Origin: Candidatus Gottesmanbacteria bacterium
Lineage (GTDB): Bacteria > Patescibacteriota > Microgenomatia > UBA10105 > UBA927
Direction of reading: 5' to 3'
Length of the DNA: 64,000 bases
Assembly (NCBI GenBank): GCA_963714095.1
Contig: OY970230.1
Coordinates: forward strand, 660,084-724,083
A model generated the notes under the pieces. The model was not told the DNA's origin. It searched no databases and saw only the letters and a list, made by a program, of their open reading frames with translations. Below, one piece after another: positions 52,576 to 64,000 of the stretch (its first letter is position 1; each line of letters opens with the position of its first letter). A program made the translations under genes and the position numbers.

Positions 52576-55497
52576 TTAAGCTTTTGGTTTTTCCCAAATA
52601 ATGTCCATGTCCTGAATTTGATAATTTGGGTGAAATGAGAATTGTTGCGCAGCCTTGAACTTAAAAGTTTTGTGAACCTGTGCCACTTTTTTATCTATAG
52701 CTTTCTCAAATTCTCCTCCGGTTCTATTTGTTCTGATTGTATGATTTTGAGGAACAGTAATTATATCAAAGTCATTGTCTAAGGCAAATGTCTCCAGAGA
52801 ACCAGTTATACCGTTAAATAGCGCCTCCTCATCAACAGAATAGAGATAGGTACTTGATGGGTTAGAGGAGACTGTGAGAATTTTCATTCCCTGTTCATTA
52901 AAATGATGAAGGAGAACTAATCCCTGACATTGTAAGGTATCTGGCTCCTGAAATACCATTTGCAGGTAGTTCGGCATACTCCACATATTTTGGTTCGGAT
53001 ATTTGTCTGGGTTGTCTCCACAAACACAAACCCCACCCACCATCCTTGCATGAGCACTTTCTTTACTCTTCGTCACATATCCGTACAGAACCTCTCGTTG
53101 CTTGCCGGATAAGGACTCAAATTTAGCCAGCTCCCTATCTATTTTTGTTCGTTCATTTTCAAATAAATCGATGAACCGCTGCACGGTATAGGAGGCAAAT
53201 TGTTCGTCATCATATTTTCCTTCTCGGATGCTTGCCTCCGTATCTAATACTTGTTGAAGGTTGATTTCTCCGAGGTGCGCTTGTTTCGGATCAACTTCTT
53301 GTCCGGTAATTGTCCTGAGTGCTTCAAATGTTCTCTCTCTTTGGGACCGGAGTTGCCCGTAGAATGCTTTCGTCTCAGGTTTTGCAGATGTAGATACTTT
53401 TTCTGTTAATCCTCCGGTAAAGGTTTCGTAGCGTCGTATGAGGGTTTTTACTTCCTCCGCAGAATAGTCTCTCCCTCTTCTTTTTTCCAATATTCTTCCG
53501 GCCTGTTTGACAAAACCCTCAGAAGCCCCCAGTTTGTCTATTTGGAGCCTATTTATCGTATCTTTTCGCTGAGCGGTTGTCGTTTCCTGTGCCAGCTTAG
53601 TAAAATATTTTGGCATGGCGGCCGCGATTGCCGGATTGTTCCATGCTGCCTGAACGAGCCGGCGGTTTACCTCCTTAATGCGATCCGAATAAAATGTTCC
53701 TACCTCGCAAAATAATGCATAGTCTTGATTGTTCGCACGTGCGACTCTATCACTCGTACCGGCAATGTAGTCACCAATATCCTCAAATGTGGTGAATTCG
53801 TAATGAATCACTAAATTTTTAACGGCTTTTGGATCAATTGATCTGGTTCCGTAGAGTGAGTCTGTTAGAATGAGAAACATTTTTTCGTCAAGTGTAGTGG
53901 CGTCCTTTATATCGATGTCCGGTAATCCGCCTTTTTCCACGATTTCCTGCAGAGTTTTATCGACACGTTCCTGCAACGCTTCGTCTATTTTCGCTTTATC
54001 ATGTCCTAAAGCGTTCATTTGTTCGGCCACGTCAAGAATTGGTTTTTGTACATCGGCTTTTACGACCGCGTCTAATGTTTCGCCTTCCTTCACCCGTATT
54101 TCACTCTGGGACAGGAGATCCATTTCATATCGTGGTTTAATCTTAAACTGTGCCAGATCGCTGCTTCTATCAGGGCAGCTTTCATTACTTTGAAAACTCG
54201 TCCATTGCCCGCTGTTATTGGAATACACGTGGTGTAATAGGTCTTTGTAGTATGGTTTTGCCCTTTCTTCGTCGGTAATGGCGCCGGAACCGGTCATCCT
54301 TTCGGCTAAAGCCTGGAGCTGAGCGATATACACTTTTTCGTGTCCGGCCGCTTTGGCTTCTTTATATCCACTCAATGTTGTTGGGGATATAATTCTAAAC
54401 TGTCGGGCAAATTCAGGCACGAGTTCTTTATCATGTGTTGACAATACGCCGGCCGAAAGACATTCCTGGTAGCCCCGAATAAGCTGATCTGATTTTTTTC
54501 CGAATTCCCCGACGAGGCCGTTCAGAAATTCGAGATCTGATGTGTCTTTTATCAACGAGTTTCCATTCGTCAATACAAACGATCTTGTCGCACGCATCTT
54601 GTCATCCATTAACGTTGGTGCCCGTTGGGGGAAAGCCAGAGCTAATGTACGGTTAATTTGGTCATTAGCTACATATTGGCTAACCTCCCTCATTTTTGGT
54701 TCATCATGGCCATATGACTTCACCATATTTCTGAAAAATTCACAATCCTGATCCGTGGGAAGGTAAACTTTGGGAAACTCTATGGGCAAAGACGATAAAT
54801 CACCGGATAAAATATCACCAGCCTTAACCGGAAGCTCCAAAGATCTCTCTTGAGATAATAATCCTTTACCAACTAACAGAACTATATTATCTCGCGCTTT
54901 TTCCTGGCCTTCGTACGCGGAAGCCATGTCTCTGAAGAAGAAAACAGTTTGTTCTCCTTCATACTGCCTACTAAATTCTCCCAGAAAGTTATCACTTTTT
55001 AACAGGGCAGGACACGTAGTATAGGCATTTAAAAACACCGGGAGATTATCAATATTTTTAGAAGGGTCTTTTAATCTATCTATAACAGGGCCTCTGGTTA
55101 AATATGTTAACGCGGTATAGTCGGTCCTGTTTTCCAAGACTAATTTCGATGCCGCATCAAATCTGCCAACAGCAGCCAGCCGCTGTTTGTTTACCGGGCT
55201 TCCTTCAGGCTGTAATAAAGAAAAGAGATTTTCCCGTAGACCTTCTCTAAAAGAATAGTCATTCATATCTGGGCCGGACCAATCATCTTCTTTGTGCCGG
55301 CGCCACGATTCCTCTGACATGTCTTTCAGGAGTTTGCTTGCCTGTTTGATATTTGCTGACTCCTGAGGATCTAAAATCTGACGTTTTGCCAAAATATCGA
55401 CAATTGCTTCGTTTCTGAGGGATTGGACTGCTAAATCCGTTAGTCTTGTATCGAGAGTTTTATCTCCAAAAAGGGCCAGAGCAAAATCTCCTGACAC
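52576..55497 (-). CDS. very large hypothetical cytoplasmic protein (973 aa)
   Basis: Long ORF without signal peptide or recognised motifs; 58-nt overlap with the upstream 579-aa gene. Confidence 0.45.
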   Translation of the reverse strand: MSGDFALALFGDKTLDTRLTDLAVQSLRNEAIVDILAKRQILDPQESANIKQASKLLKDMSEESWRRHKEDDWSGPDMNDYSFREGLRENLFSLLQPEGSPVNKQRLAAVGRFDAASKLVLENRTDYTALTYLTRGPVIDRLKDPSKNIDNLPVFLNAYTTCPALLKSDNFLGEFSRQYEGEQTVFFFRDMASAYEGQEKARDNIVLLVGKGLLSQERSLELPVKAGDILSGDLSSLPIEFPKVYLPTDQDCEFFRNMVKSYGHDEPKMREVSQYVANDQINRTLALAFPQRAPTLMDDKMRATRSFVLTNGNSLIKDTSDLEFLNGLVGEFGKKSDQLIRGYQECLSAGVLSTHDKELVPEFARQFRIISPTTLSGYKEAKAAGHEKVYIAQLQALAERMTGSGAITDEERAKPYYKDLLHHVYSNNSGQWTSFQSNESCPDRSSDLAQFKIKPRYEMDLLSQSEIRVKEGETLDAVVKADVQKPILDVAEQMNALGHDKAKIDEALQERVDKTLQEIVEKGGLPDIDIKDATTLDEKMFLILTDSLYGTRSIDPKAVKNLVIHYEFTTFEDIGDYIAGTSDRVARANNQDYALFCEVGTFYSDRIKEVNRRLVQAAWNNPAIAAAMPKYFTKLAQETTTAQRKDTINRLQIDKLGASEGFVKQAGRILEKRRGRDYSAEEVKTLIRRYETFTGGLTEKVSTSAKPETKAFYGQLRSQRERTFEALRTITGQEVDPKQAHLGEINLQQVLDTEASIREGKYDDEQFASYTVQRFIDLFENERTKIDRELAKFESLSGKQREVLYGYVTKSKESAHARMVGGVCVCGDNPDKYPNQNMWSMPNYLQMVFQEPDTLQCQGLVLLHHFNEQGMKILTVSSNPSSTYLYSVDEEALFNGITGSLETFALDNDFDIITVPQNHTIRTNRTGGEFEKAIDKKVAQVHKTFKFKAAQQFSFHPNYQIQDMDIIWEKPKA

Positions 55498-57179
55498 CCC
55501 CCTATATCAGGATGATTCCAATGTTCTCCGAAATCCCAGGATTCCAGCACTGCCCGCGCAGGTTTGAGAGACGGATACACTTTTTCAGCCTCATCCAGAC
55601 ACTGTTTCCACTCGGAACGCCTACTGAGGCTGCTTAACGCCCAATTTGCGTGAACCGTCCGGTATTCTTGTCTATCCGCAGCGGCGAGTATCACCAAATT
55701 CCTTATGGAGTCCGGTGTCGGGTAGTAAACCAGCGTATCAATGTCGCCACCCTGAGTATCAGACAGGGATTTATCCAGAGCTGTTGTATAGTATTTTTGA
55801 TCCGCCTGTCGTATGACATCACCGAAGATTTCATTGGCCGCATTTGACGATTTTACTGCCCGCCAGAAATCCATATTCGGAATATAGTCGTCACCGTTAT
55901 TAATGGCTGAAAGAACCTGGCGTCCGAACAAATTTTCCTCTCCATTCAAACCACGTGATGGATTTACATTATTATCAAAAATATCGTCAAATTTATTTCT
56001 TGATTCCCAGTTTTGTAAATGCGGAGAAACAGCGGTTTTTATAGGGACGATATCCTCTGCTGCCATTTGAGCCACGAACGCCGAAATCATAGTCACATCA
56101 TTCCCATTAAGTAAGGGGTCACACGCGTACTGAAGATTGTAAAATCCATTCTCGTAGTTAAAGAAGCGATCAAGTTCGTTTCTATACTGCTGTTTTTGTG
56201 CTTCAGGATCCTTTCGGTGTTCGATGCAGGTTCGAAGAGCTGAAAAGAATTCATCCTTTCTGCCAGCTGGCAACCTCCTTTCATCGGCTATCTTGTCCGC
56301 TTGAGGTGCGAGTACTTGCTGAATATAATTTTCCCGTATTTCCGAGGTTAGTGTCCCGTCTGTGAGGATTTCCTGTAATAACTGCTCGTATTCTGTTCGA
56401 ATTGCTTTAATTTCCTGCCCTATCTCAGTAAGCATTGTCTCTTCTTGTTTCAGGCGAATCGGCTTTTCCTGCTCTGCAAGTTGATCCATAACTTGCCGTT
56501 TCGCCTGTGTTTGGGCGTCAAGTTGCTCAAGTTGTTTTTGATTAGCACTTTTTTTCCCTGCCAAGATTCGTTTTTCAATCACTGCCGGTATTTTTCCAAG
56601 GCCCTTTGCCCGCTCGAGCTCTCTTGCTCGTTCCTCAATCGTCCATTCTGTTTGACTTTGAGACGAGCGTTGTCTTTCTAATAAATCCGTTTCAGCCCTT
56701 GTTTGAGTTCTCACTTGGGCGGAAGTCCGTAAAATTTGTTTGCTCCGAGCAAGAAATTCTGTCGGCGGAATAGATTCTCCTTTGGCAAGAGCTTCGAGCT
56801 GGGTCCGCGCATCTTCAGGGGTGACTGCGGCTTGAAGTTCTTGATCCTCAGTCTCCACACTAACCATTTCAATTAATTGAGTTGCTTTCTCAACGTGGGC
56901 ATGTGCGCTTGCTTTTGTCTCGTCGAGTTTTAAGGCTAGTCCGCTCTTTTGCACTGCCTGATGTTCCGGTTGTGGCTTGACTACAGGTTTTGCTAATTGT
57001 TGACCCTCACTGAGAGGTGGGGGAATATCGGGTATATTTCCTTCCATATCGATGTATGCTCCGTATACGTAGTTTACGTAATTTTCATGAGAATTGCATG
57101 GAGTTAAATTTAGGTGAAATTCAACTGTGGCTATCTGATAAGAGTTTCTGTTCAGATAGTAGGTTTTGGGTCGTACCAA
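55440..57179 (-). CDS. large hypothetical protein (579 aa) with central coiled-coil/charged region
   Basis: Long ORF; E/Q/R/K-rich predicted coiled coil in residues ~120-330. Confidence 0.45.
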   Translation of the reverse strand: MVRPKTYYLNRNSYQIATVEFHLNLTPCNSHENYVNYVYGAYIDMEGNIPDIPPPLSEGQQLAKPVVKPQPEHQAVQKSGLALKLDETKASAHAHVEKATQLIEMVSVETEDQELQAAVTPEDARTQLEALAKGESIPPTEFLARSKQILRTSAQVRTQTRAETDLLERQRSSQSQTEWTIEERARELERAKGLGKIPAVIEKRILAGKKSANQKQLEQLDAQTQAKRQVMDQLAEQEKPIRLKQEETMLTEIGQEIKAIRTEYEQLLQEILTDGTLTSEIRENYIQQVLAPQADKIADERRLPAGRKDEFFSALRTCIEHRKDPEAQKQQYRNELDRFFNYENGFYNLQYACDPLLNGNDVTMISAFVAQMAAEDIVPIKTAVSPHLQNWESRNKFDDIFDNNVNPSRGLNGEENLFGRQVLSAINNGDDYIPNMDFWRAVKSSNAANEIFGDVIRQADQKYYTTALDKSLSDTQGGDIDTLVYYPTPDSIRNLVILAAADRQEYRTVHANWALSSLSRRSEWKQCLDEAEKVYPSLKPARAVLESWDFGEHWNHPDIGGCQEILLWPFLEIKLSIQD

Positions 57180-57205
57180 CGCTTTATTTATGATAAAATG
57201 CGTTT

Positions 57206-57478
57206 ATGCCAGTGATTAGTCCCACAGAATACGGCATAAAACCTCGACCGGACCATAAACCCGGGTATATTCTGGTGACGCCTACCGAACAACAATTTTT
57301 TGAGGTTGATGGTACGGACGTGCGATTGGACAGGATAAGAGTTTTTGGGCCTAACGGGTTTGAAAGGTCATATTTAAGAGACAAAATAGGCCAGAGGTTT
57401 ACTGATAATCTATCAGGAACGGAGGATGACTTTGCTTATTTGGTTACACCGGAGAAAAAGAGAGAGCGCAGGTTCTAA
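57206..57478 (+). CDS. hypothetical small protein (90 aa)
   Basis: ORF only. Confidence 0.3.
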   Translation: MPVISPTEYGIKPRPDHKPGYILVTPTEQQFFEVDGTDVRLDRIRVFGPNGFERSYLRDKIGQRFTDNLSGTEDDFAYLVTPEKKRERRF

Positions 57479-57504
57479 ATTCTTTGGAGGCACCGTAACT
57501 AAAT

Positions 57505-57536
57505 CTAAAAAAGGCAGCCATGTGGCCGCCTTTTTT
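57505..57536. terminator. bidirectional rho-independent terminator between convergent genes
   Basis: AAAAAAGGCAGCCATGTGGCCGCCTTTTTTG: GC-rich hairpin flanked by A-tract and T-tract. Confidence 0.6.
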
Positions 57537-57558
57537 GTTTGTTTATAAACAAATACGC

Positions 57559-57924
57559 TTACCAATTCCGTCCGCCGCGGTCATCGCCTCCACCACCTCG
57601 ATATCCACCTCCACCTCCGCCGCCACCTCGATATCCACCTCCACCTCCGCCGCCAAATCCGCGATTCTCGCGGGGCGCCATCGGTTTGGCTTCGTTGACC
57701 ACGATTGCGCGGCCATCGAGTGTTTTTCCGTTTAAGTCGGCGATTGCTTTCTTTGCTTCATCATCCGTACTCATTTCCACAAATCCGAATCCTCTGGATT
57801 TTCCGGAAAACTTATCCGTAATGATTTTCGCTGATGTTACCGTACCGGCTGTTGCAAAAAATGTCTTGAGTGAGTCATCTGTCGTGTCCCATGAAAGTCC
57901 TCCAACAAATAATTTAAGTGCCAT
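57559..57924 (-). CDS. RRM-domain RNA-binding protein with Gly/Arg-rich C-terminal tail
   Basis: RNP2 KLFVGGLSW and RNP1 RGFGFVEM motifs; GGGGGGYRGGGGGGGGYRGGGG tail. Confidence 0.85.
   Translation of the reverse strand: MALKLFVGGLSWDTTDDSLKTFFATAGTVTSAKIITDKFSGKSRGFGFVEMSTDDEAKKAIADLNGKTLDGRAIVVNEAKPMAPRENRGFGGGGGGGYRGGGGGGGGYRGGGGDDRGGRNW
57592..57651. repeat. perfect 30-nt tandem duplication inside the RRM gene tail (encodes the GGGGGGYRGG repeat)
   Basis: cacctcgatatccacctccacctccgccgc occurs twice consecutively. Confidence 0.8.
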
Positions 57925-58250
57925 AAATAGTATTCACCTCCTTTAGGTTTCCTTACTATTACCTGACTATTCCACTTGTGGAGGAATAAGGTCACGAACA
58001 GAAAGGGTTACTTCGCGTATTGTATCACGATAATAGGGTATATGATATCCTTGGAAATATGTTGTTGCCTGCAAAAGGCTAAAAACTTGAAATACCTTCT
58101 TGAGCTGGTAGGATGCGACTACTGTTTAAAATATAGGATAATTAGAATTGTAAGATATCATACAATTCATTTTCAGAAAGAGGGTAGATTTTTGACTAAA
58201 ATGGCAACCGATATGAAACTATAAGTTTCACTTTCAACGAAGTAATAAGT

Positions 58251-58278
58251 TTGACGCACTACGAAAACGTGGTATAAT
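58251..58278 (+). promoter_or_regulatory. sigma70-type promoter: -35 TTGACG, 16-nt spacer, extended -10 TGgTATAAT
   Basis: ttgacg-cactacgaaaacgtgg-tataat, preceded by an AT-rich UP-like region. Confidence 0.6.
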
Positions 58279-58284
58279 GACATT

Positions 58285-58532
58285 AAGTTAATAAAAGCGT
58301 TGATCCGGAGGGTTGGAACCGGGTAAGCTGACTCTTAAATCAAGTACGGAGCCGAAACCGTAAAAAGACAGGAACGCATGTCGTCCGCCAATTGGCGAGT
58401 GGAGTGCGTCAAGAATAAGGTTTTTCTTTGACGTCCCCGCGAGGGGATTTTTTAGAGGAAAACAGCGTACGGTGGTATAGCCGTAAAGGCCCGTACAAGT
58501 GTCCATTTTTTGGATGCTTGTACGGGTTTTTT
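58285..58532 (+). promoter_or_regulatory. candidate T-box-like riboswitch leader (about 245 nt) ending in an intrinsic terminator, upstream of tRNA-Trp-trpB2-trpS
   Basis: Terminator CCCGUACAAG-loop-CUUGUACGGG-UUUUUU (58490..58532). Mutually exclusive antiterminator: helix GUACGG(58467-72)/CCGUAC(58491-96), 7-nt bulge UGGUAUA, helix GCC/GGC with GUAAA loop. UGGA present in an upstream hairpin loop. Confidence 0.4.
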
Positions 58533-58540
58533 GTTGATTT

Positions 58541-58612
58541 AGGCGGATAGCTCAATGGTAGAGCACTTGTCTCCAAAACAAGTGATTGTAGGTTCAAGTC
58601 CTACTCCGCCTG
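58541..58612 (+). tRNA. tRNA-Trp (anticodon CCA), 72 nt, discriminator G, CCA not encoded
   Basis: Manual cloverleaf: acceptor AGGCGGA/TCCGCCT, D GCTC/GAGC, anticodon stem CTTGT/ACAAG with loop CTCCAAA, T stem GTAGG/CCTAC with loop TTCAAGT. Confidence 0.85.
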
Positions 58613-58715
58613 CCTATGGAATATACATTTTGGAAAAGCAGGGGGCGGGAATACTGGCGAAACGATGCGCCAGGGTATTACGTGCTCTATTATTAAAATT
58701 TTTTAAGGAGAAACT

Positions 58716-60026
58716 ATGAAAAAAATGAATATATTGGAAGGACGGGAGCGACCTATGACATATTTTAATCTCCCGTATTATTTGAAGAAATATCTTAGGG
58801 AATTGCCGCCACCACCGTTGGATCCGGCGACGAAGCAGCCGATTGGGCTGGAGGCGCTCGCGCGGTTGTTTCCGATGGAACTTATACGCCAGGAGGTTTC
58901 ACTGGAAAAAGAGATTCCCATACCCGATGAGGTTCGGGAGTTGTATGCGATGTACCGGCCGACGCCGCTCTTGCGGGCGAAGCGGTTGGAAAAAACGTTG
59001 GGGACGCCGGCGCATATTTATTTTAAATACGAAGGCGTCTCGCCGGTCGGAAGCCATAAGTTCAATACCGCCCTTGCCCAGGCGTATTACAACAAAAAAG
59101 AAGGGATTACGGGTCTCACGACCGAAACAGGTGCCGGCCAGTGGGGGTCGGCGCTCGCGCTTGCATGCAATTTTTTTGACATGAAGTGCCGGGTGTTTAT
59201 GGTGAGGACGTCATTTGATCATAAGCCGTATAGAAAGACGGTCATGAATCTGTATGGTGCGACGGTTGTTTCCAGCCCGTCAAACGAAACAGCATCGGGA
59301 CGTGCGTTTAGAAAAAAGTATCCTGATACGACCGGAAGCTTGGGCATGGCGATTTCCGAGGCGATTGAGGTGGCAGCAACGACGCCAAATACGCACTACG
59401 CACTTGGTAGCGTTCTCAATCACGTGATGCTGCACCAGACCATTATCGGTCAGGAAGCACAAAAGCAAATGGAGAAGGAGGGGGAGTATCCGGATATTGT
59501 CATCGGGTGCTGCGGGGGAGGGAGTAACCTTGCTGGAATCAGTTTTCCGTTTGTCGCAGATAAACTCGCCGGCAAACGCCGGCGCCTGCGGATTGTTGCG
59601 GTTGAACCGACTGCGTGTCCGTCACTCACCAAGGGTGAGTACCGGTACGACTCGGGAGATACTGCAGGGCTCACGCCGCTTATGAAAATGTATACGGTAG
59701 GAAGCGATTATGTGCCCTCGCCGATCCATGCAGGGGGGTTGCGGTACCACGGGGACGCACCGCTCGTGTGCTTTTTGTACCACAAAAAGCTTATCGAAGC
59801 GGTAGCGTATGAGCAAAAAGAGGTCTTTGAGGCGGCACAGCTTTTTGCTCGAACAGAGGGGATTATTCCTGCTCCCGAGTCCGCCCATGCAATAAAACAC
59901 GTGATTGTTGAGGCCATCCGTGCTAAAAAAGAAGGAAAAAAGAAAACGATTCTTTTTAACCTTTCCGGGCACGGGCTGTTGGACCTCGGTGCATACGAAG
60001 AGTTTTTAGAGGGAAGAATAAAGTAA
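58716..60026 (+). CDS. trpB: tryptophan synthase beta subunit-like PLP enzyme, TrpB2 type
   Basis: [14 protein letters not shown]...[15 protein letters not shown] (PLP-lysine and glycine loop), 436 aa with the N-terminal extension typical of TrpB2. Confidence 0.8.
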
Positions 60027-60084
60027 GGAATTTATGCCGCCCCGTAAAAACTACGGGGCGGCATGATAGAATGAAAGGAGAACT

Positions 60085-61431
60085 ATGAAACGAGTTTTGT
60101 CAGGAATTACACCAAGCGGGGACGGAAGCCTGCATATAGGAAATTATTTGGGGGCGGTGAGCCAATTTAAAAAGCTGTCAGAAAATTACGACTGCTTTCT
60201 TTTTGTTGCTGATTTGCATGCCCTGACGACCGTCCAGGATAAAACGCAATTGCAAAAAAACATTGAAGCGCTTGTTTTAAACGAGTTGGCCCTCCTCGGG
60301 GATTTGAAAAATATCACTTTTTTCCGTCAGTCTGATGTGCCGCAGCACACTGAACTGCAATCAATTCTCAATAACGTTACGTCGTTAGGGCTTTTAAAAC
60401 GAGCGCACGCGTACAAAGATAAGCTGCAAAAAGACATAACGGAGGATGATATTAATGTCGGTTTGTTTAGCTATCCTATGCTCATGGCTGCAGACATTCT
60501 TTTGTATAAATCCGATTTGGTACCGGTGGGAAAGGATCAGAAGCAGCATATTGAAATAACCCGGGATGTTGCCGGACGGTTTAACAAAATTTTTAAGAAA
60601 CAGGTATTTAAACTTCCCGATGCATATATCCCTGAGGATGTATCAACTGTTCTTGGAATTGATGGGAAACGGAAAATGAGCAAATCCCTGGGGAATATCA
60701 TCAGCATCTTTGAAAATGAAGACATGATTAAGAAACAAGTGATGAGCGCGTACACGGATCCCACCCGCGGACATGCCACAGATGCGGGACACATTGAAGG
60801 GAACATGGTGTTCACGTACCTCGATTTTTTTGGTGAAAAGGAAAAAGTAGCCAAGTTAAAAGAGCTATATACAAAGGGCCAAGTATCAGATATTGAGGTT
60901 AAAAATTATTTATTTGAATCCTTGATGAAAACATTTAAAAAAGCACGGGAAAGATACGAGGACCTGGCAAGGCATCCGGAAAAAGTAAAGAAAATTTTAG
61001 AAGACGGGGCAGTAAAGGCGAAACTTATTGCAGCTGCAACTATGGGTGAAGTGCGTGAAACAATTGGACTCGTCAACGCATATTCTATTAGTGGCGAATC
61101 ATTAATTATTTCTATCGATGATTTCGTGAAAGTTGAGATGCGTGTGGGAAAAGTGACGGAGGCGAAGAATAAGGAAGGCAGCGATAAGCTTATACGGCTC
61201 GTTGTGGATTTTGGAGAGCAAGGGACACGCGTGATATTTACCGGCGTGCGCGGCTACGGGTATACTCCTGAAGATTTTATGGGTAAACAATTTATGTTTG
61301 TATTTAATCTCGCGCCGCGGAAAATGATGGATGAAGAATCACAAGGAATGATTATGGCAGTTGACGGCTCCGATGAGAAACCTCAATTTATACCCGCAGA
61401 TGGTATGCCGCCAGGCGCGAAAATCCGCTAA
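60085..61431 (+). CDS. trpS: tryptophanyl-tRNA synthetase with C-terminal tRNA-binding (Myf/EMAP-like OB) domain
   Basis: HIGH-type GITPSGDGSLHIGNYLGA, KMSKSLGN; C-terminal VKVEMRVGKVTEA...KLIRLVVDFGE OB-fold tRNA-binding motif. Confidence 0.85.
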   Translation: MKRVLSGITPSGDGSLHIGNYLGAVSQFKKLSENYDCFLFVADLHALTTVQDKTQLQKNIEALVLNELALLGDLKNITFFRQSDVPQHTELQSILNNVTSLGLLKRAHAYKDKLQKDITEDDINVGLFSYPMLMAADILLYKSDLVPVGKDQKQHIEITRDVAGRFNKIFKKQVFKLPDAYIPEDVSTVLGIDGKRKMSKSLGNIISIFENEDMIKKQVMSAYTDPTRGHATDAGHIEGNMVFTYLDFFGEKEKVAKLKELYTKGQVSDIEVKNYLFESLMKTFKKARERYEDLARHPEKVKKILEDGAVKAKLIAAATMGEVRETIGLVNAYSISGESLIISIDDFVKVEMRVGKVTEAKNKEGSDKLIRLVVDFGEQGTRVIFTGVRGYGYTPEDFMGKQFMFVFNLAPRKMMDEESQGMIMAVDGSDEKPQFIPADGMPPGAKIR

Positions 61432-61455
61432 ACGTGCTATACTTGCCAGGTACCT

Positions 61456-63342
61456 ATGGCAGAGAAACCACAACAAAAAGTTCAAAAAAAGAACGGAAAC
61501 GGGAAGAAATCCAAAATCTGGATGTTCCGGTTTCACCTGAACCTCAAAAACATCTTCATCGGACTATTTGCGTTGTTTATCCTTTTGTCACTATTGGGAA
61601 GTATCGGCGGGCAAAATTCTAACGCGCCCGAAAAGCCGCTTTCCACGGTGATTACCGATGTGAAGGCGGGGAGCGTCAGCAGTATTGAGGTTGAGGATAC
61701 CAAGCTGACAGTGTCCTACAAAAACGGCACGAAAGCCGTGGCATATAAGGAAACGCAGGATTCGCTGTATAAAGTGCTTTCCGATGCGGGCGTGGATCCG
61801 AAGAACGTTGCCATTACCGTCAAGGATCAAACTACAAGTCAGCTGTGGATGAATATTCTTTCTAATGTATTACCCCTGGTGTTAACCGTGGTATTTTTTC
61901 TCTTCCTTTTCCGTCAGGCGCGCGGTGCCCAGGACAATATTTTCAGTTTCGGTCAGAGCAAAGCCCGTATTTGGAATAAAGATCTGCCCAAAGTAACATT
62001 TGCGGATGTGGCTGGCGTTGATGAGGCAAAGAAAGAACTGGAGGAGGTCGTTGATTTCTTAAAAAATCCCACGAAATACAAAGCGCTCGGCGCCAGGACT
62101 CCGAAAGGGGTACTGCTTGTTGGGCCCAGCGGAACGGGCAAGACGCTTCTTGCCAAAGCCATGGCAGGGGAGGCGAAGACGTCGTTTTACAGTATCGCAG
62201 GATCGGAGTTTATGGAAATGCTTGTTGGGGTTGGCGCCGCACGTGTGCGTGATTTATTTGCTCAGGCTAAGAAAACCGCACCGGCAATTATTTTTATTGA
62301 TGAAATCGATGCCATCGGACGCATGCGCAGTGTCGGCATTATGGGCGGACATGACGAGCGCGAACAGACCCTCAATCAGATTCTTGTTGAAATGGACGGA
62401 TTTGAACCAAATGTTGCCGTTCTTATCGTAGCTGCGACTAACCGCGGGGATCTGTTGGATCCGGCGCTCCTTCGGCCCGGACGGTTTGACCGGCGCGTGG
62501 TCTTGGACATGCCGGACATTGAAGGACGGAAAGCCATTCTTGCAATTCATGCCAAAGGCAAGCCGTTTGCAGCCGGTGTTGACTGGGATAAAGTAGCCCG
62601 CCGTACGGTCGGTTTTTCTGGGGCAGATTTGGAGAATATGCTTAACGAAGCGGCAATTCAGGCAGCACGCGGGAATAAAAAGGAAATTGACATGGCAGAC
62701 CTTGAAGAGGCTGCAACGAAAGTGAAATTGGGGCCGGAGAAAAAGCGGTTGCAAAGTGATATGGACCGTAAAATGACCGCGTATCATGAGAGCGGACACG
62801 CAGTCGTTTCGTATTTCTCCAAATATACGGATGCGGTGCATAGGATCAGTATTGTGTCCCGTGGAATGGCCTTGGGGTACACGCTTTCGCCACCGGAAAA
62901 GGACCGTCTGCATGAAACGAAATCGCATTTGATTGATGAAATTGCCATGACGATGGGGGGCCGCGCCGCAGAGCAGTTAATTTTTAACGAAATGACATCG
63001 GGTGCTGCCAATGATATCGATCAGGCCACGAGGATTGCTCGGTATATGGTTATGGAGTTTGGTATGTCGGATCTCGGGCCCATCAATTTCGGGCCGCAAA
63101 TGGACGTGACGGAATGGGGGAAGAGTTTGAGTGAGCAGCAGCAAATTTCGCCGGAAATGATGTCGAAAATCGATACCGAAATTCAAAAATTCGTGAATGC
63201 TGGGTACAAAGAAGCCGTCGATATTCTAAAAAAACATCAGACACAGTTGAAGGCAATTGCAGAATTACTTCTCAAGAAAGAAACTGTTGAAGGTGATGAA
63301 TTTGAAGCCCTCATGGGCGGCCCCAAGAAAAAACTCGAATAA
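61456..63342 (+). CDS. ftsH: ATP-dependent zinc metalloprotease FtsH
   Basis: AAA Walker [14 protein letters not shown], second region of homology, HESGHAVV zinc motif, N-terminal TM helices. Confidence 0.9.
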
Positions 63343-63359
63343 TCTCCTATAATACCTTC

Positions 63360-64000
63360 ATGAACCGATTGGTATTAATCGACGGCAATGCCATATTGCA
63401 CCGCGCGTATCACGCACTGCCGCCCCTCACGGCGCCGGACGGGTCGGTCGTAAACGCCGTATATGGATTCGGTACAATGCTCCTGAGGCTTATTACCGAC
63501 CTTAAACCCACCCATGTAGCCGTTGCATTTGACCGGCCAAAGCCTACGTTCCGGAAAGAATTGTTTGCCGGATATCAGGCCAAGCGGCCGAAAATGGATG
63601 AGGAATTAGTGGATCAGATCCCCAAAGTCCATGCGCTTGTTTCTGGCTTTGGTATTCCGATTTTTGAAAAAGACGGGTTTGAGGCAGATGACGTTATTGG
63701 TACACTCGCTAAAAATGCGAAAAAAGACGGTATAGATCAGGTGATTATCGTAACCGGTGACCGGGATATATTACAATTGGTTGAGGATGAAAAAATACTT
63801 GTCTGGATGCCGACAAAAGGATTATCGGAGGCGAAATTATACGATGAAAAAGCAGTGAAAGAGCGGATGGGGGTGGCACCAAATAAAATTCCGGATTTTA
63901 AAGCGCTTGCCGGCGACCCGTCAGATAATTATCCGGGAATTCCTGGCGTTGGCCCCAAAACCGCAGCGGCACTTTTAGCCAAATATAAAACACTTGCGGG
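63360..64000 (+). CDS. polA: DNA polymerase I, 5'-3' exonuclease N-terminal domain (partial, runs off window)
   Basis: LVLIDGNAILHRAYHALP...VYGF...DRPKPTFRKELFAGYKA...ITGDRD 5'-nuclease motifs; no stop before the window end. Confidence 0.8.
   Translation, partial: MNRLVLIDGNAILHRAYHALPPLTAPDGSVVNAVYGFGTMLLRLITDLKPTHVAVAFDRPKPTFRKELFAGYQAKRPKMDEELVDQIPKVHALVSGFGIPIFEKDGFEADDVIGTLAKNAKKDGIDQVIIVTGDRDILQLVEDEKILVWMPTKGLSEAKLYDEKAVKERMGVAPNKIPDFKALAGDPSDNYPGIPGVGPKTAAALLAKYKTLA

Follow-up and report, generated by a model that had tools for sequence, protein, structure and literature searches.

The question raised here is how a putative transcription unit that begins with a tRNA gene and continues with genes serving the same amino acid is controlled in a bacterium of the Candidate Phyla Radiation (CPR, or Patescibacteria), a group in which, to our knowledge, almost no gene regulation has been characterised. 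The unit lies in a 64,000-nucleotide stretch of a Candidatus Gottesmanbacteria genome (assembly GCA_963714095.1, contig OY970230.1, positions 660,084 to 724,083; hereafter the window) and comprises tRNA-Trp, trpB2 and trpS, the last encoding tryptophanyl-tRNA synthetase (TrpRS). It is preceded by a leader of ~245 nucleotides (nt; 58285-58535), in which a sequence-only reading had proposed a T-box-like antiterminator/terminator switch ahead of these three genes. Comparison with homologous leaders bears out this proposal on each point, and the leader is very probably a tryptophan-specific T-box-type transcription attenuator. It is a T-box riboswitch by logic and ancestry, though in several structural respects it departs from the classes studied so far, and it falls short of the Rfam threshold. 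The whole layout recurs, with compensatory changes, in 24 related leaders, which is far more than chance would produce.

A probable two-state switch ahead of tRNA-Trp

The leader folds at -95.3 kcal/mol, far below 200 shuffles of 58285-58535 (-68.4 +/- 4.6 kcal/mol; z = -5.82), in agreement with its description as structured. Its 3' part can adopt two mutually exclusive folds, the 5' strand of an intrinsic terminator being identical to the 3' strands of helices A2 and A1 of a T-box antiterminator (shared strand 58488-58496; Table 1). The antiterminator, whose pairing of the terminator 5' half with GUACGG has exactly the geometry first proposed, is the minimum free energy structure of the nascent RNA 58460-58512 (-11.6 kcal/mol), whilst that of the full-length RNA is the terminator (-31.7 kcal/mol). 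The latter is as strong as had been claimed, with 20 pairs followed by U6, and is separated from tRNA-Trp by a gap of only 8 nt (58533-58540). All three window helices are perfect, with A1 paired at 6/6, A2 at 3/3 and the terminator at 12/12 positions.

The comparative family comprises 24 homologous leaders, drawn from metagenomes and from CPR genomes of Gottesmanbacteria-like type. Its sources are three Gottesmanbacteria loci whose TrpB2 gene is preceded by a conserved copy of the leader (L001, L002 and L011), together with 22 metagenome loci retrieved by means of a 22-base motif that is invariant in the decoding domain; removal of duplicates and truncated copies left 21 complete leaders, and several partial ones were also parsed. 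A1 forms all six pairs in 20 of the 21 complete leaders and A2 all three pairs in every one, whilst the bulge between them is in each case exactly 7 nt long and begins with UGGN (UGGC in 18, UGGU in 3). Every complete leader also retains at least 10 of 11 terminator pairs and a U-run. In loop-excised constructs, 99.4% of antiterminator cells are paired, with compensatory changes at 6/9 pairs, and 98.7% of terminator cells, with compensatory changes at 8/12 pairs, values far above the 28-55% of slid controls. Changes in the 5' strand of A1 are accompanied by matching changes in both the shared strand and the 3' strand of the terminator, as in GUACGG/CCGUAC/GUACGG, GCAAGG/CCUUGC/GCAAGG, GCAGGG/CCCUGC/GCAGGG and AUAAGG/CCUUGU/GCAAGG, and such joint change of three strands is what a two-state switch would be predicted to leave behind.

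The sequence of the core supports the same assignment. Most relatives carry a near-canonical T-box core, GGUGGCACCGCC, whose UGGC is complementary to the G73-CCA end of tRNA-Trp; that of L001 and L002 reads GCAGGGUGGCACCGCC, nearly the textbook AGGGUGGNACCGCG, and its UGGC is fully complementary to this end. The discriminator is G73 in all four tRNA-Trp genes linked to leaders, including that of the window, where pairing with the UGGU bulge needs a U-G wobble. This wobble, foreseen in the sequence-only reading, is a minority variant, since most relatives have UGGC. The remainder of the bulge varies in the family (ACC, ACA, AAC, AUC, AUA), and UGGUAU(A/C) is common to the window, L095 and L093.

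Two individual copies deserve mention. In the window, a hairpin of UACGG (58468-72) with CCGUA (58481-85), at -5.1 kcal/mol, would hide the bulge; as a family feature it was rejected, not being general across the members. At L098 (1783-2087, minus strand) the T-box core GCAAGGUGGCACAUCGGUUUUU runs directly into tRNA-Trp and then trpS, the A2 3' strand, the A1 3' strand and the terminator all having been lost; this looks like a natural deletion that would render the unit constitutive.

Table 1. Elements of the leader and downstream genes in the window
Feature	Position	Strand	Details
Sigma-70-type promoter	58251..58278	+	TTGACG 58251-58256, 16-nt spacer, extended -10 TGgTATAAT 58270-58278
A-rich 5' block and K-turn 5' strand	58290..58303	+	AAUAAAAGCG-UUGA; RF00230 alignment to Stem I base GA motif in L001
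C-stem	within 58290..58303	+	A58296-G58297-C58298, then bulge GUU, then GA; C-stem pairs 100% kept
Ultrashort Stem I	58304..58323	+	5 bp, UCCGG 58304-08 with CCGGG 58319-23
Terminal specifier loop	closing Stem I	+	AGGGUUGGAA, 10 nt; Trp codon UGG 58314-16, purine A58317
K-turn region 3' strand	58324..58330	+	UAAGCUG, slightly off-consensus; relatives mostly GA-GC-UGA
P2	58331..58345	+	3-bp helix ACU/AGU, loop CUCUUAAAUCA; at Stem II position, far too short for an S-turn
Stem IIA-like hairpin	58346..58363	+	ACGG-AGCCGAAA-CCGU then AA; CCGUAA is the F-box counterpart
Invariant purine-rich linker	58362..58373	+	AAAAAGACAGGA; AGGA aligns with IIB 3' strand of other CPR T-boxes
P3	58374..58409	+	long irregular hairpin ACGCAUGUCGU...GUGGAGUGCGU, variable tip; extra element between IIA region and Stem III
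Stem III	58420..58463	+	lower helix 58420-31 with 58452-63; preceded by invariant CAAGAAUAAGG; RF00230-aligned in L001
GC-rich hairpin and U6	58433..58453	+	GUCCCC-GCGA-GGGGAU 58433-58448, U6 58448-58453; within Stem III, terminator-like
T-box core and antiterminator	58467..58496	+	A1, 7-nt bulge, A2, loop GUAAA
A1 helix	58467-58472 with 58491-58496	+	GUACGG with CCGUAC
Bulge	58473-58479	+	UGGUAUA; UGGU complementary to G73-C-C-A of tRNA-Trp, U-G wobble
A2 helix	58480-58482 with 58488-58490	+	GCC with GGC; loop GUAAA
Intrinsic terminator	58485..58532	+	hairpin 58485-58531, 20 pairs; U6 58527-58532
tRNA-Trp	58541..58614	+	anticodon CCA; 75.3 bits; discriminator G at 58612
TrpB2-type tryptophan synthase beta-like pyridoxal phosphate enzyme	58716..60026	+	436 aa; PALP, 4e-48
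TrpRS fused to C-terminal tRNA-binding domain	60085..61431	+	448 aa; tRNA-synt_1b, 3.8e-62; tRNA_bind, 2.9e-19

The decoding domain

Leaders that include the 5' end share an A-rich block, GC-GUU-GA, a helix of 5-8 bp, a terminal loop of 9-10 nt reading RRGGW-UGG-R(A), a return strand and GA-GC-UGA. As a pattern in sequence, this is the signature of a kink-turn (K-turn) followed by a short Stem I that would present a Trp codon, with the usual 3' purine, at its apex; RF00230, the Rfam T-box model, places the family K-turn consensus (GC-GUU-GA-stem...stem-GA-GC) on its GA motif, a correspondence at the level of sequence. The hairpin near the 5' end that had been described as exposing UGGA is therefore this Stem I with its specifier loop, and UGG-R occupies the loop in all 23 leaders containing the region. 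Of the Stem I features listed for checking, the K-turn signature and specifier loop are present, whilst the distal AG bulge and distal loop are absent.

Pairing in the 5' domain was counted in a 15-sequence alignment with slid partners as the control; five further leaders (L081, L083, L084, L085 and L101) carry insertions after Stem I that led MAFFT to misalign the 3' strand, and for this reason they were excluded from the formal counts and parsed separately. Paired cells amount to 97.1%, against 17-40% in the controls. Compensatory changes affect 3/5 pairs of Stem I, 2/3 of P2 (CG, UA, GC, AU) and 3/10 of P3. Stem I thus occurs as CCGG/CCGG, GGGG/CCCC, GAGG/CCUC, GCAG/CUGC and GAGGAAAU/AUUUUCUC, and in P3, where 96% of cells are paired, CGCA/UGCG alternates with CGAG/CUCG. 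The K-turn stem and Stem I, together with the IIA hairpin and P3, also emerge from RNAalifold when no structure is supplied. The IIA hairpin itself is invariant because of the way in which the loci were retrieved, and covariation is hence uninformative for it.

P3 bears on one rival explanation, that a leader peptide governs the choice between the two hairpins through ribosomes stalling at Trp codons. A 17-codon open reading frame (ORF; MSSANWRVECVKNKVFL) does begin at 58378, with AGGA 4 nt upstream and one Trp codon. Its AUG, however, lies within the co-varying P3 stem, most relatives have GUG followed by a stop after 2-4 codons, the single Trp codon is not conserved and the frame ends ~70 nt before the antiterminator. 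This non-conservation of the ORF refutes leader-peptide attenuation, to which only a negligible chance is assigned.

A second rival holds that a TRAP-like or other RNA-binding attenuation factor, or a small molecule, acts on the terminator and antiterminator, the likeness to a T-box being ancestral only. In its favour, the elements that hold the tRNA elsewhere (elbow platform, S-turn and pseudoknot) are missing, so that something else is perhaps needed; a gene for an RRM-domain protein lies divergently upstream (57559-57924), and the invariant purine-rich linker and IIA loop AGCCGAAA have no assigned partner. Yet the window leader contains no (G/U)AG repeat arrays of the TRAP type, the RRM gene is not conserved beside the leader at other loci, and the most strictly kept single-stranded features are the UGG-R loop and the UGGN bulge, for which such a sensor would have no need. 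A protein that assists the K-turn would be compatible with a T-box and hence no rival to it. Direct control by a protein or metabolite is accordingly regarded as very unlikely.

One family member differs in layout: L091 (351-608, minus strand) seemingly has neither a Stem I at the standard position nor a Stem III, and carries a promoter-like GATATACT just 5' of the IIA hairpin, with a UGG-containing hairpin ~75 nt further upstream. The 5'-domain covariance model, which has to accommodate a large insertion here, scored it at 56.6 bits. In a search with the same model that covered the window and 98 loci, no second copy emerged in the window and only weak matches in L021 and L015, so that no members with other specifier codons were identified.

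Stem III and its embedded hairpin

The sequence-only reading named elements that are all present but overlooked one terminator-like hairpin, which lies with its own U6 inside Stem III, upstream of the terminator proper. A hairpin followed by U4-U8 occupies this place in 20 of 23 distinct leaders, with at least eight different stem sequences. Stem III is flanked on its 5' side by an invariant AAGAAU(G/A)AGG. On its 3' side most members have AA or GAA, where the window has AG; the RRRxG register is not matched exactly. A candidate helix CGUCA/UGACG flanking the Stem III 5' arm was rejected, as it is mismatched in L087 and L089 and not conserved. A GC-rich hairpin with a U-run inside Stem III also occurs in L036, L039 and L042.

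The embedded hairpin might be taken for the end of an independent small RNA gene (58285-58453), with the later hairpin as its terminator or processing signal. Its GC-rich stem and U6 do resemble a terminator and, as noted, are widely conserved, but two elements lie beyond the U-run: first the 3' arm of Stem III, itself conserved, and then a T-box core in which the A1 strand co-varies with the terminator strand. Moreover, L011 has no embedded hairpin and yet retains all other leader elements, and no small RNA family of Rfam matches. An independent small RNA is thus highly improbable. Within a T-box, the hairpin and U-run could instead serve as a programmed RNA polymerase pause, or as a leaky first terminator, giving the tRNA time to bind.

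Covariance models and the case against a T-box

RF00230 has no match in the window: a scan at the gathering score and a permissive one (E<=10) of a 571-nt slice were both negative. This null alone would have counted against a T-box, and the question was settled by comparison. In full-length alignments to relatives, RF00230 reaches significance with 37.5 bits for L090 (E 9e-5) and 35.4 bits for L099 (3e-4), and gives 17.6 bits for L001; in the last of these its alignment covers the GA motif, a Stem I of 9 nt against 75 in the model, a Stem II in short form, the IIA/F-box, Stem III and the T-box core. Other CPR leaders score 29.5-64.9 bits, and two positive controls upstream of a Firmicutes TrpB2 homolog reach 108 (L057) and 110 bits (L058). 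Since the CPR leaders all fall below the Rfam threshold, standard models fail to detect them and a set of CPR T-boxes is probably invisible to, and missed by, current annotation. The main T-box catalogue was built from RF00230 matches and a class II model run only on Actinobacteria.

The lack of an Rfam match had been named beforehand as decisive against a T-box if coupled with the lack of any Stem I-like element; the former is found here, whilst a Stem I-like K-turn and specifier hairpin are present. The other outcome named, a match to a different RNA family, does not arise: Rfam and ARAGORN scans returned nothing for 6S, SRP, RNase P or tmRNA, so that these identities are rejected, and the remaining Rfam matches in the window (rox2, CRISPR repeats, RybB) are chance-level hairpin matches, none of which explains the leader.

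A number of observations nevertheless weigh against the assignment. RF00230 scores in the family range from 17.6 to 37.5 bits and never exceed 38, against a gathering score of 93, and in the window there is no match at all. The distal Stem I elbow platform (interdigitated double T-loop motif, IDTM) is absent, Stem I ending after 5-8 bp in the specifier loop. By-eye searches against other CPR leaders found neither an S-turn, the sole helix at the Stem II site being the 3-bp P2, nor a convincing IIB pseudoknot partner for the IIA loop. The window bulge ends in AUA rather than the conserved ACC, and the pair at the base of A2 is G-C in 18 of 19 distinct sequences (AU in one, GU in none). The comparison has limits of its own, as retrieval with an invariant motif makes the family members closely related, and the effective sequence number of the covariance model is as low as 1.13, so that shuffle controls overstate independence; in the antiterminator and terminator counts, the parser chose partner strands by best complementarity. 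Finally, the support is drawn from sequence and predicted folds.

Some of these points would also suit a decaying relic, that is, a window copy no longer responsive to tRNA that acts as a constitutive partial terminator before tRNA-Trp. The bulge UGGUAUA in place of UGGCACC, with its wobble to G73 and the loss of ACC, the off-consensus K-turn 3' strand (UAAGC versus GAGC) and the missing RF00230 match could all be read as decay, and decay does exist naturally in L098. Despite this, A1, A2 and the terminator of the window are paired without exception and TBDB accepts a wobble at the discriminator position. In addition, L095 and L093 share the bulge variant of the window, and their A2, terminator and Stem I have diverged yet stay paired, which argues for selection. 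That the window copy is a relic is therefore considered unlikely, and a tryptophan T-box remains the preferred reading. What was unforeseen in the original proposal of a T-box is the degree to which the decoding domain departs from those studied.

Relationship to known T-boxes

Canonical transcriptional T-boxes (RF00230; Bacillus subtilis tyrS and trpS; L057 and L058) have the same order of K-turn, Stem I, Stem II region, IIA/F-box, Stem III and UGGN bulge, and the same sharing of the antiterminator 3' strand with an intrinsic terminator and U-run. The specifier likewise fits the amino acid of the downstream genes and UGGN the discriminator of the tRNA. The CPR family differs in its Stem I of 5-8 bp with a terminal-loop specifier and no AG bulge, distal loop or elbow platform, in a 3-bp Stem II without an S-turn, in an IIB pairing that is not evident and in the extra hairpin P3. 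Further differences are that A2 has G-C at its base in place of G•U, that the ACC of the bulge varies and that RF00230 scores reach 0-38 bits against the gathering score of 93. Transcriptional T-boxes are described as generally needing a long Stem I whose elbow-binding platform, the IDTM, is termed essential and provides fast tRNA capture, whereas a short Stem I has been linked to translational control and dependence on Stem II (PMC7583486). In the same account, the aminoacyl group is sensed sterically above all by the uridine of the basal G•U pair of A2, and the discriminator is stabilised by the ACC of the bulge. A wobble at the discriminator position of UGGN is tolerated in TBDB.

The closest likeness in the decoding domain is to the translational ileS leaders of Actinobacteria (Mycobacterium, Nocardia; Sherwood et al. 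2015; 6UFG, 6UFM; as cited in PMC7583486), which, as that source describes them, also have an ultrashort Stem I on a K-turn, a specifier in the apical loop and no elbow platform. Lacking that platform, either group must recognise its tRNA through the anticodon and the NCCA end. According to the same secondary account, the Actinobacterial leaders act on translation by sequestering the Shine-Dalgarno sequence, are specific for Ile and need both a compact IIA/B pseudoknot and a long Stem II that carries an S-turn; the CPR family, from another phylum, is specific for Trp, shows no evident counterpart of either element and has a strong intrinsic terminator. Masking of a Shine-Dalgarno sequence, as in class II, is not found in the window, where the alternative helix is a 20-bp hairpin with U6 and the next gene is a tRNA rather than an ORF. 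The glyQS T-boxes, which also have a simplified decoding domain, show that T-boxes can work in the absence of Stem II and IIA/B (PMC7583486), but they keep a long Stem I with an elbow platform and a strong GGC-GCC pairing, whereas the CPR family has no platform and uses UGG-CCA.

TrpB2 homologs of many phyla are preceded by Trp T-boxes, and a trpB-like T-box has been reported in Dehalococcoides (Chloroflexi; Wels et al. 2008, PMC2494555). By lineage, the TrpB2 leaders comprise genuine RF00230 T-boxes in Firmicutes, Trp T-boxes with a long Stem I in Chloroflexota and intermediates in other CPR bacteria, and they appear to form a graded series down to the ultrashort form. Chloroflexi and other CPR Trp T-boxes (L021, L024, L033, L042) share with the family a trpB-like target, the UGG specifier and a UGGC or UGGU bulge. 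L021 also shares the ultrashort Stem I, and L033 a tRNA-Trp in the operon. In contrast to the family, the Chloroflexi members have a canonical long Stem I, and L024, L033 and L042 carry the specifier in a side bulge below a short distal hairpin and have U rather than the G-C pair at the A2 3' end, as do the other Trp T-boxes fetched. Comparison with these three loci shows a route by which the terminal loop would have originated, the side bulge GGGG-GUUGGG-C becoming A-GGGUUGGAA after loss of the distal hairpin. At the IIA position, other CPR leaders read CGG-CUUCCU-CCGUAA-NCAU-AGGA; L021, L024 and L033 have a canonical IIA/B element whose loop pairs with downstream AGGA or AUAGC, and L042 has CCGUAA...AGG. 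The family loop AGCCGAAA, invariant at all positions, lacks the UCCU of these leaders and can form at most two Watson-Crick pairs with the downstream AGGA. The P3 internal loop UGU/GAG is likewise unlike an AGUA/GAA-type S-turn in sequence, though the two may be equivalent in three dimensions.

The Firmicutes leaders have a peculiarity of their own: in L057 (~2700-2860) and L058 (~2590-2730) one Stem I/II region is followed by two tandem T-box cores (AGGUGGCAUCG... and GGGUGGCACCGCGG...), and each core has a terminator to itself.

A possible mechanism

Transcription would start near 58285, and the 5' domain (K-turn, 5-bp Stem I, P2, IIA/F-box-like hairpin and P3) would fold and pair with the CCA anticodon of tRNA-Trp. 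RNA polymerase would then pass the hairpin and U-run in Stem III, where a pause could allow time for tRNA binding. With uncharged tRNA-Trp, G73-C-C-A would pair with the bulge UGGU and stabilise the weak antiterminator (-11.6 kcal/mol), leading to read-through into tRNA-Trp, trpB2 and trpS. With the tRNA charged or absent, the shared strand would be taken by the terminator (-31.7 kcal/mol) and transcription would stop at 58527-58532. Uncharged tRNA-Trp would in this way raise the synthesis of itself, TrpRS and TrpB2.

A tentative extension of this scheme, which we regard as possible but somewhat doubtful, is a minimal co-transcriptional T-box in which the Stem III pause compensates kinetically for the short Stem I and feedback acts on the cognate tRNA, its synthetase and a tryptophan-forming enzyme. 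The same reserve attaches to its specific novelties, namely pause compensation, new tRNA contacts and autoregulation of the tRNA. If true, the current rule would be wrong in requiring elbow contact of transcriptional T-boxes, and some new means of reading the tRNA and detecting its charge, one that uses P3, the purine linker and the invariant AGCCGAAA loop, would await discovery. An ultrashort Stem I combined with an intrinsic terminator, and with a candidate pause element, would be a natural counter-example to the elbow-platform rule, and the family gives a direct experimental handle on the kinetic argument for elbow contact. The presence of the cognate tRNA in the controlled unit would make the ligand its own regulatory target, and the tRNA gene would supply an RNase P/Z processing site between riboswitch and mRNA. 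Small natural T-boxes may also be useful as scaffolds for engineered tRNA sensors, and a working riboswitch as a genetic tool for Patescibacteria. In the open-access literature, no paper was found that links T-boxes to CPR, Patescibacteria or Microgenomates.

Downstream genes and relatives

The downstream genes are tryptophan-specific, as had been claimed, with tRNA-Trp, a TrpB2-type enzyme and TrpRS followed by a gene for FtsH. The CPR-like context is likewise confirmed, the closest TrpB2 homologs (78-64% identity) belonging to loci of Gottesmanbacteria and other Microgenomates. Across the family, the genes downstream of the leader include tRNA-Trp, TrpB2, canonical TrpB with TrpA and several TrpRS (one with an editing domain), together with a few others (Asp/Glu-racemase-like, DIT1/PvcA-like and BtpA). 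The C-terminal tRNA_bind fusion of TrpRS in these CPR genomes is EMAP/Trbp111-like, and the third downstream ORF of L093 (627 aa) is a TrpRS additionally fused to an N-terminal YbaK/ProX-type tRNA_edit domain.

The arrangement with the cognate tRNA first, rightly thought unusual, is not confined to the window: tRNA-Trp directly follows the leader in L011, L084 and L098 also, and in L033 it lies 3' of trpB2 within the T-box-controlled unit, giving five loci with a cognate tRNA gene inside the unit. No description of a T-box unit starting with its own cognate tRNA gene was found in open-access text. In the window and L084, the tRNA starts at most 10 nt from the terminator U-run, which leaves no room for a separate promoter, and tRNA-Trp is thus most likely made from the read-through transcript and would be released by RNase P and 3' processing.

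At other loci the space between the terminator and trpB2 is filled differently. An ORF of 133-140 aa with no Pfam match occupies the place of the window's tRNA-Trp in L001 (2527-2950) and at the equivalent position of L002; its motif DGHHR is ParB/sulfiredoxin-like by eye. In L011, AGGAGCAUAGUGAAACGGUAUCACAGGGAGUCUCUCC (~2640-2690) lies between the terminator and tRNA-Trp and resembles the 5' half of an L084-type tRNA-Trp; ARAGORN does not call this segment as a tRNA, and it may be a tRNA remnant.

Promoter and neighbouring elements

The near-consensus sigma-70 promoter described earlier is present at 58251-58278, matching 11/12 positions with an extended -10 TG, and is the best promoter-like site in 56000-64000. 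Family members have a promoter-like element at the equivalent position. The spacing is the usual 16-18 nt in the window, L081, L086, L093 and L100, whereas TTGAC lies only 7-8 nt 5' of a TG-TATACT -10 box in L001, L011, L085, L087, L088, L095, L101 and L102 (e.g. TTGACGGTTATGGTATACT); either the promoters of these CPR genomes have an unusual geometry here, or the motif is a recognition element of another kind. The leader is intergenic, between tRNA-Trp and the divergent gene, on the minus strand, for the RRM-domain protein (RRM_1, 121 aa, 4e-23). Past this gene, two large minus-strand ORFs with no Pfam match span 52576-55497 and 55440-57179 (973 and 579 aa).

Between tRNA-Trp and the start of trpB2 there is another conserved element (58627-58679 in the window). 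It reads AUUUUGGAAAAGC-N-GGGAAUAYUGGCG and in the window is followed by the hairpin GAAUACUGGCG-AAACGAU-GCGCCAGGGUAUU. It recurs in L001 (~2910-2952), L002 (2881-2936), L011 (~2851-2936), L042 (2631-2672) and L084 (688-793, minus strand), and in at least five loci, among them L042 from outside the leader family, it immediately precedes the TrpB2 gene. No Rfam family matches the element, which may represent a further regulatory RNA, a site for a protein or a promoter of unusual type.

Lastly, two short contigs that carry leaders also contain matches to group I catalytic introns above the Rfam gathering score, one in L085 (2019-2211, plus strand, 68.7 bits) and one in L099 (1301-1504, minus strand, 71.4 bits), the latter just upstream of a tRNA gene.

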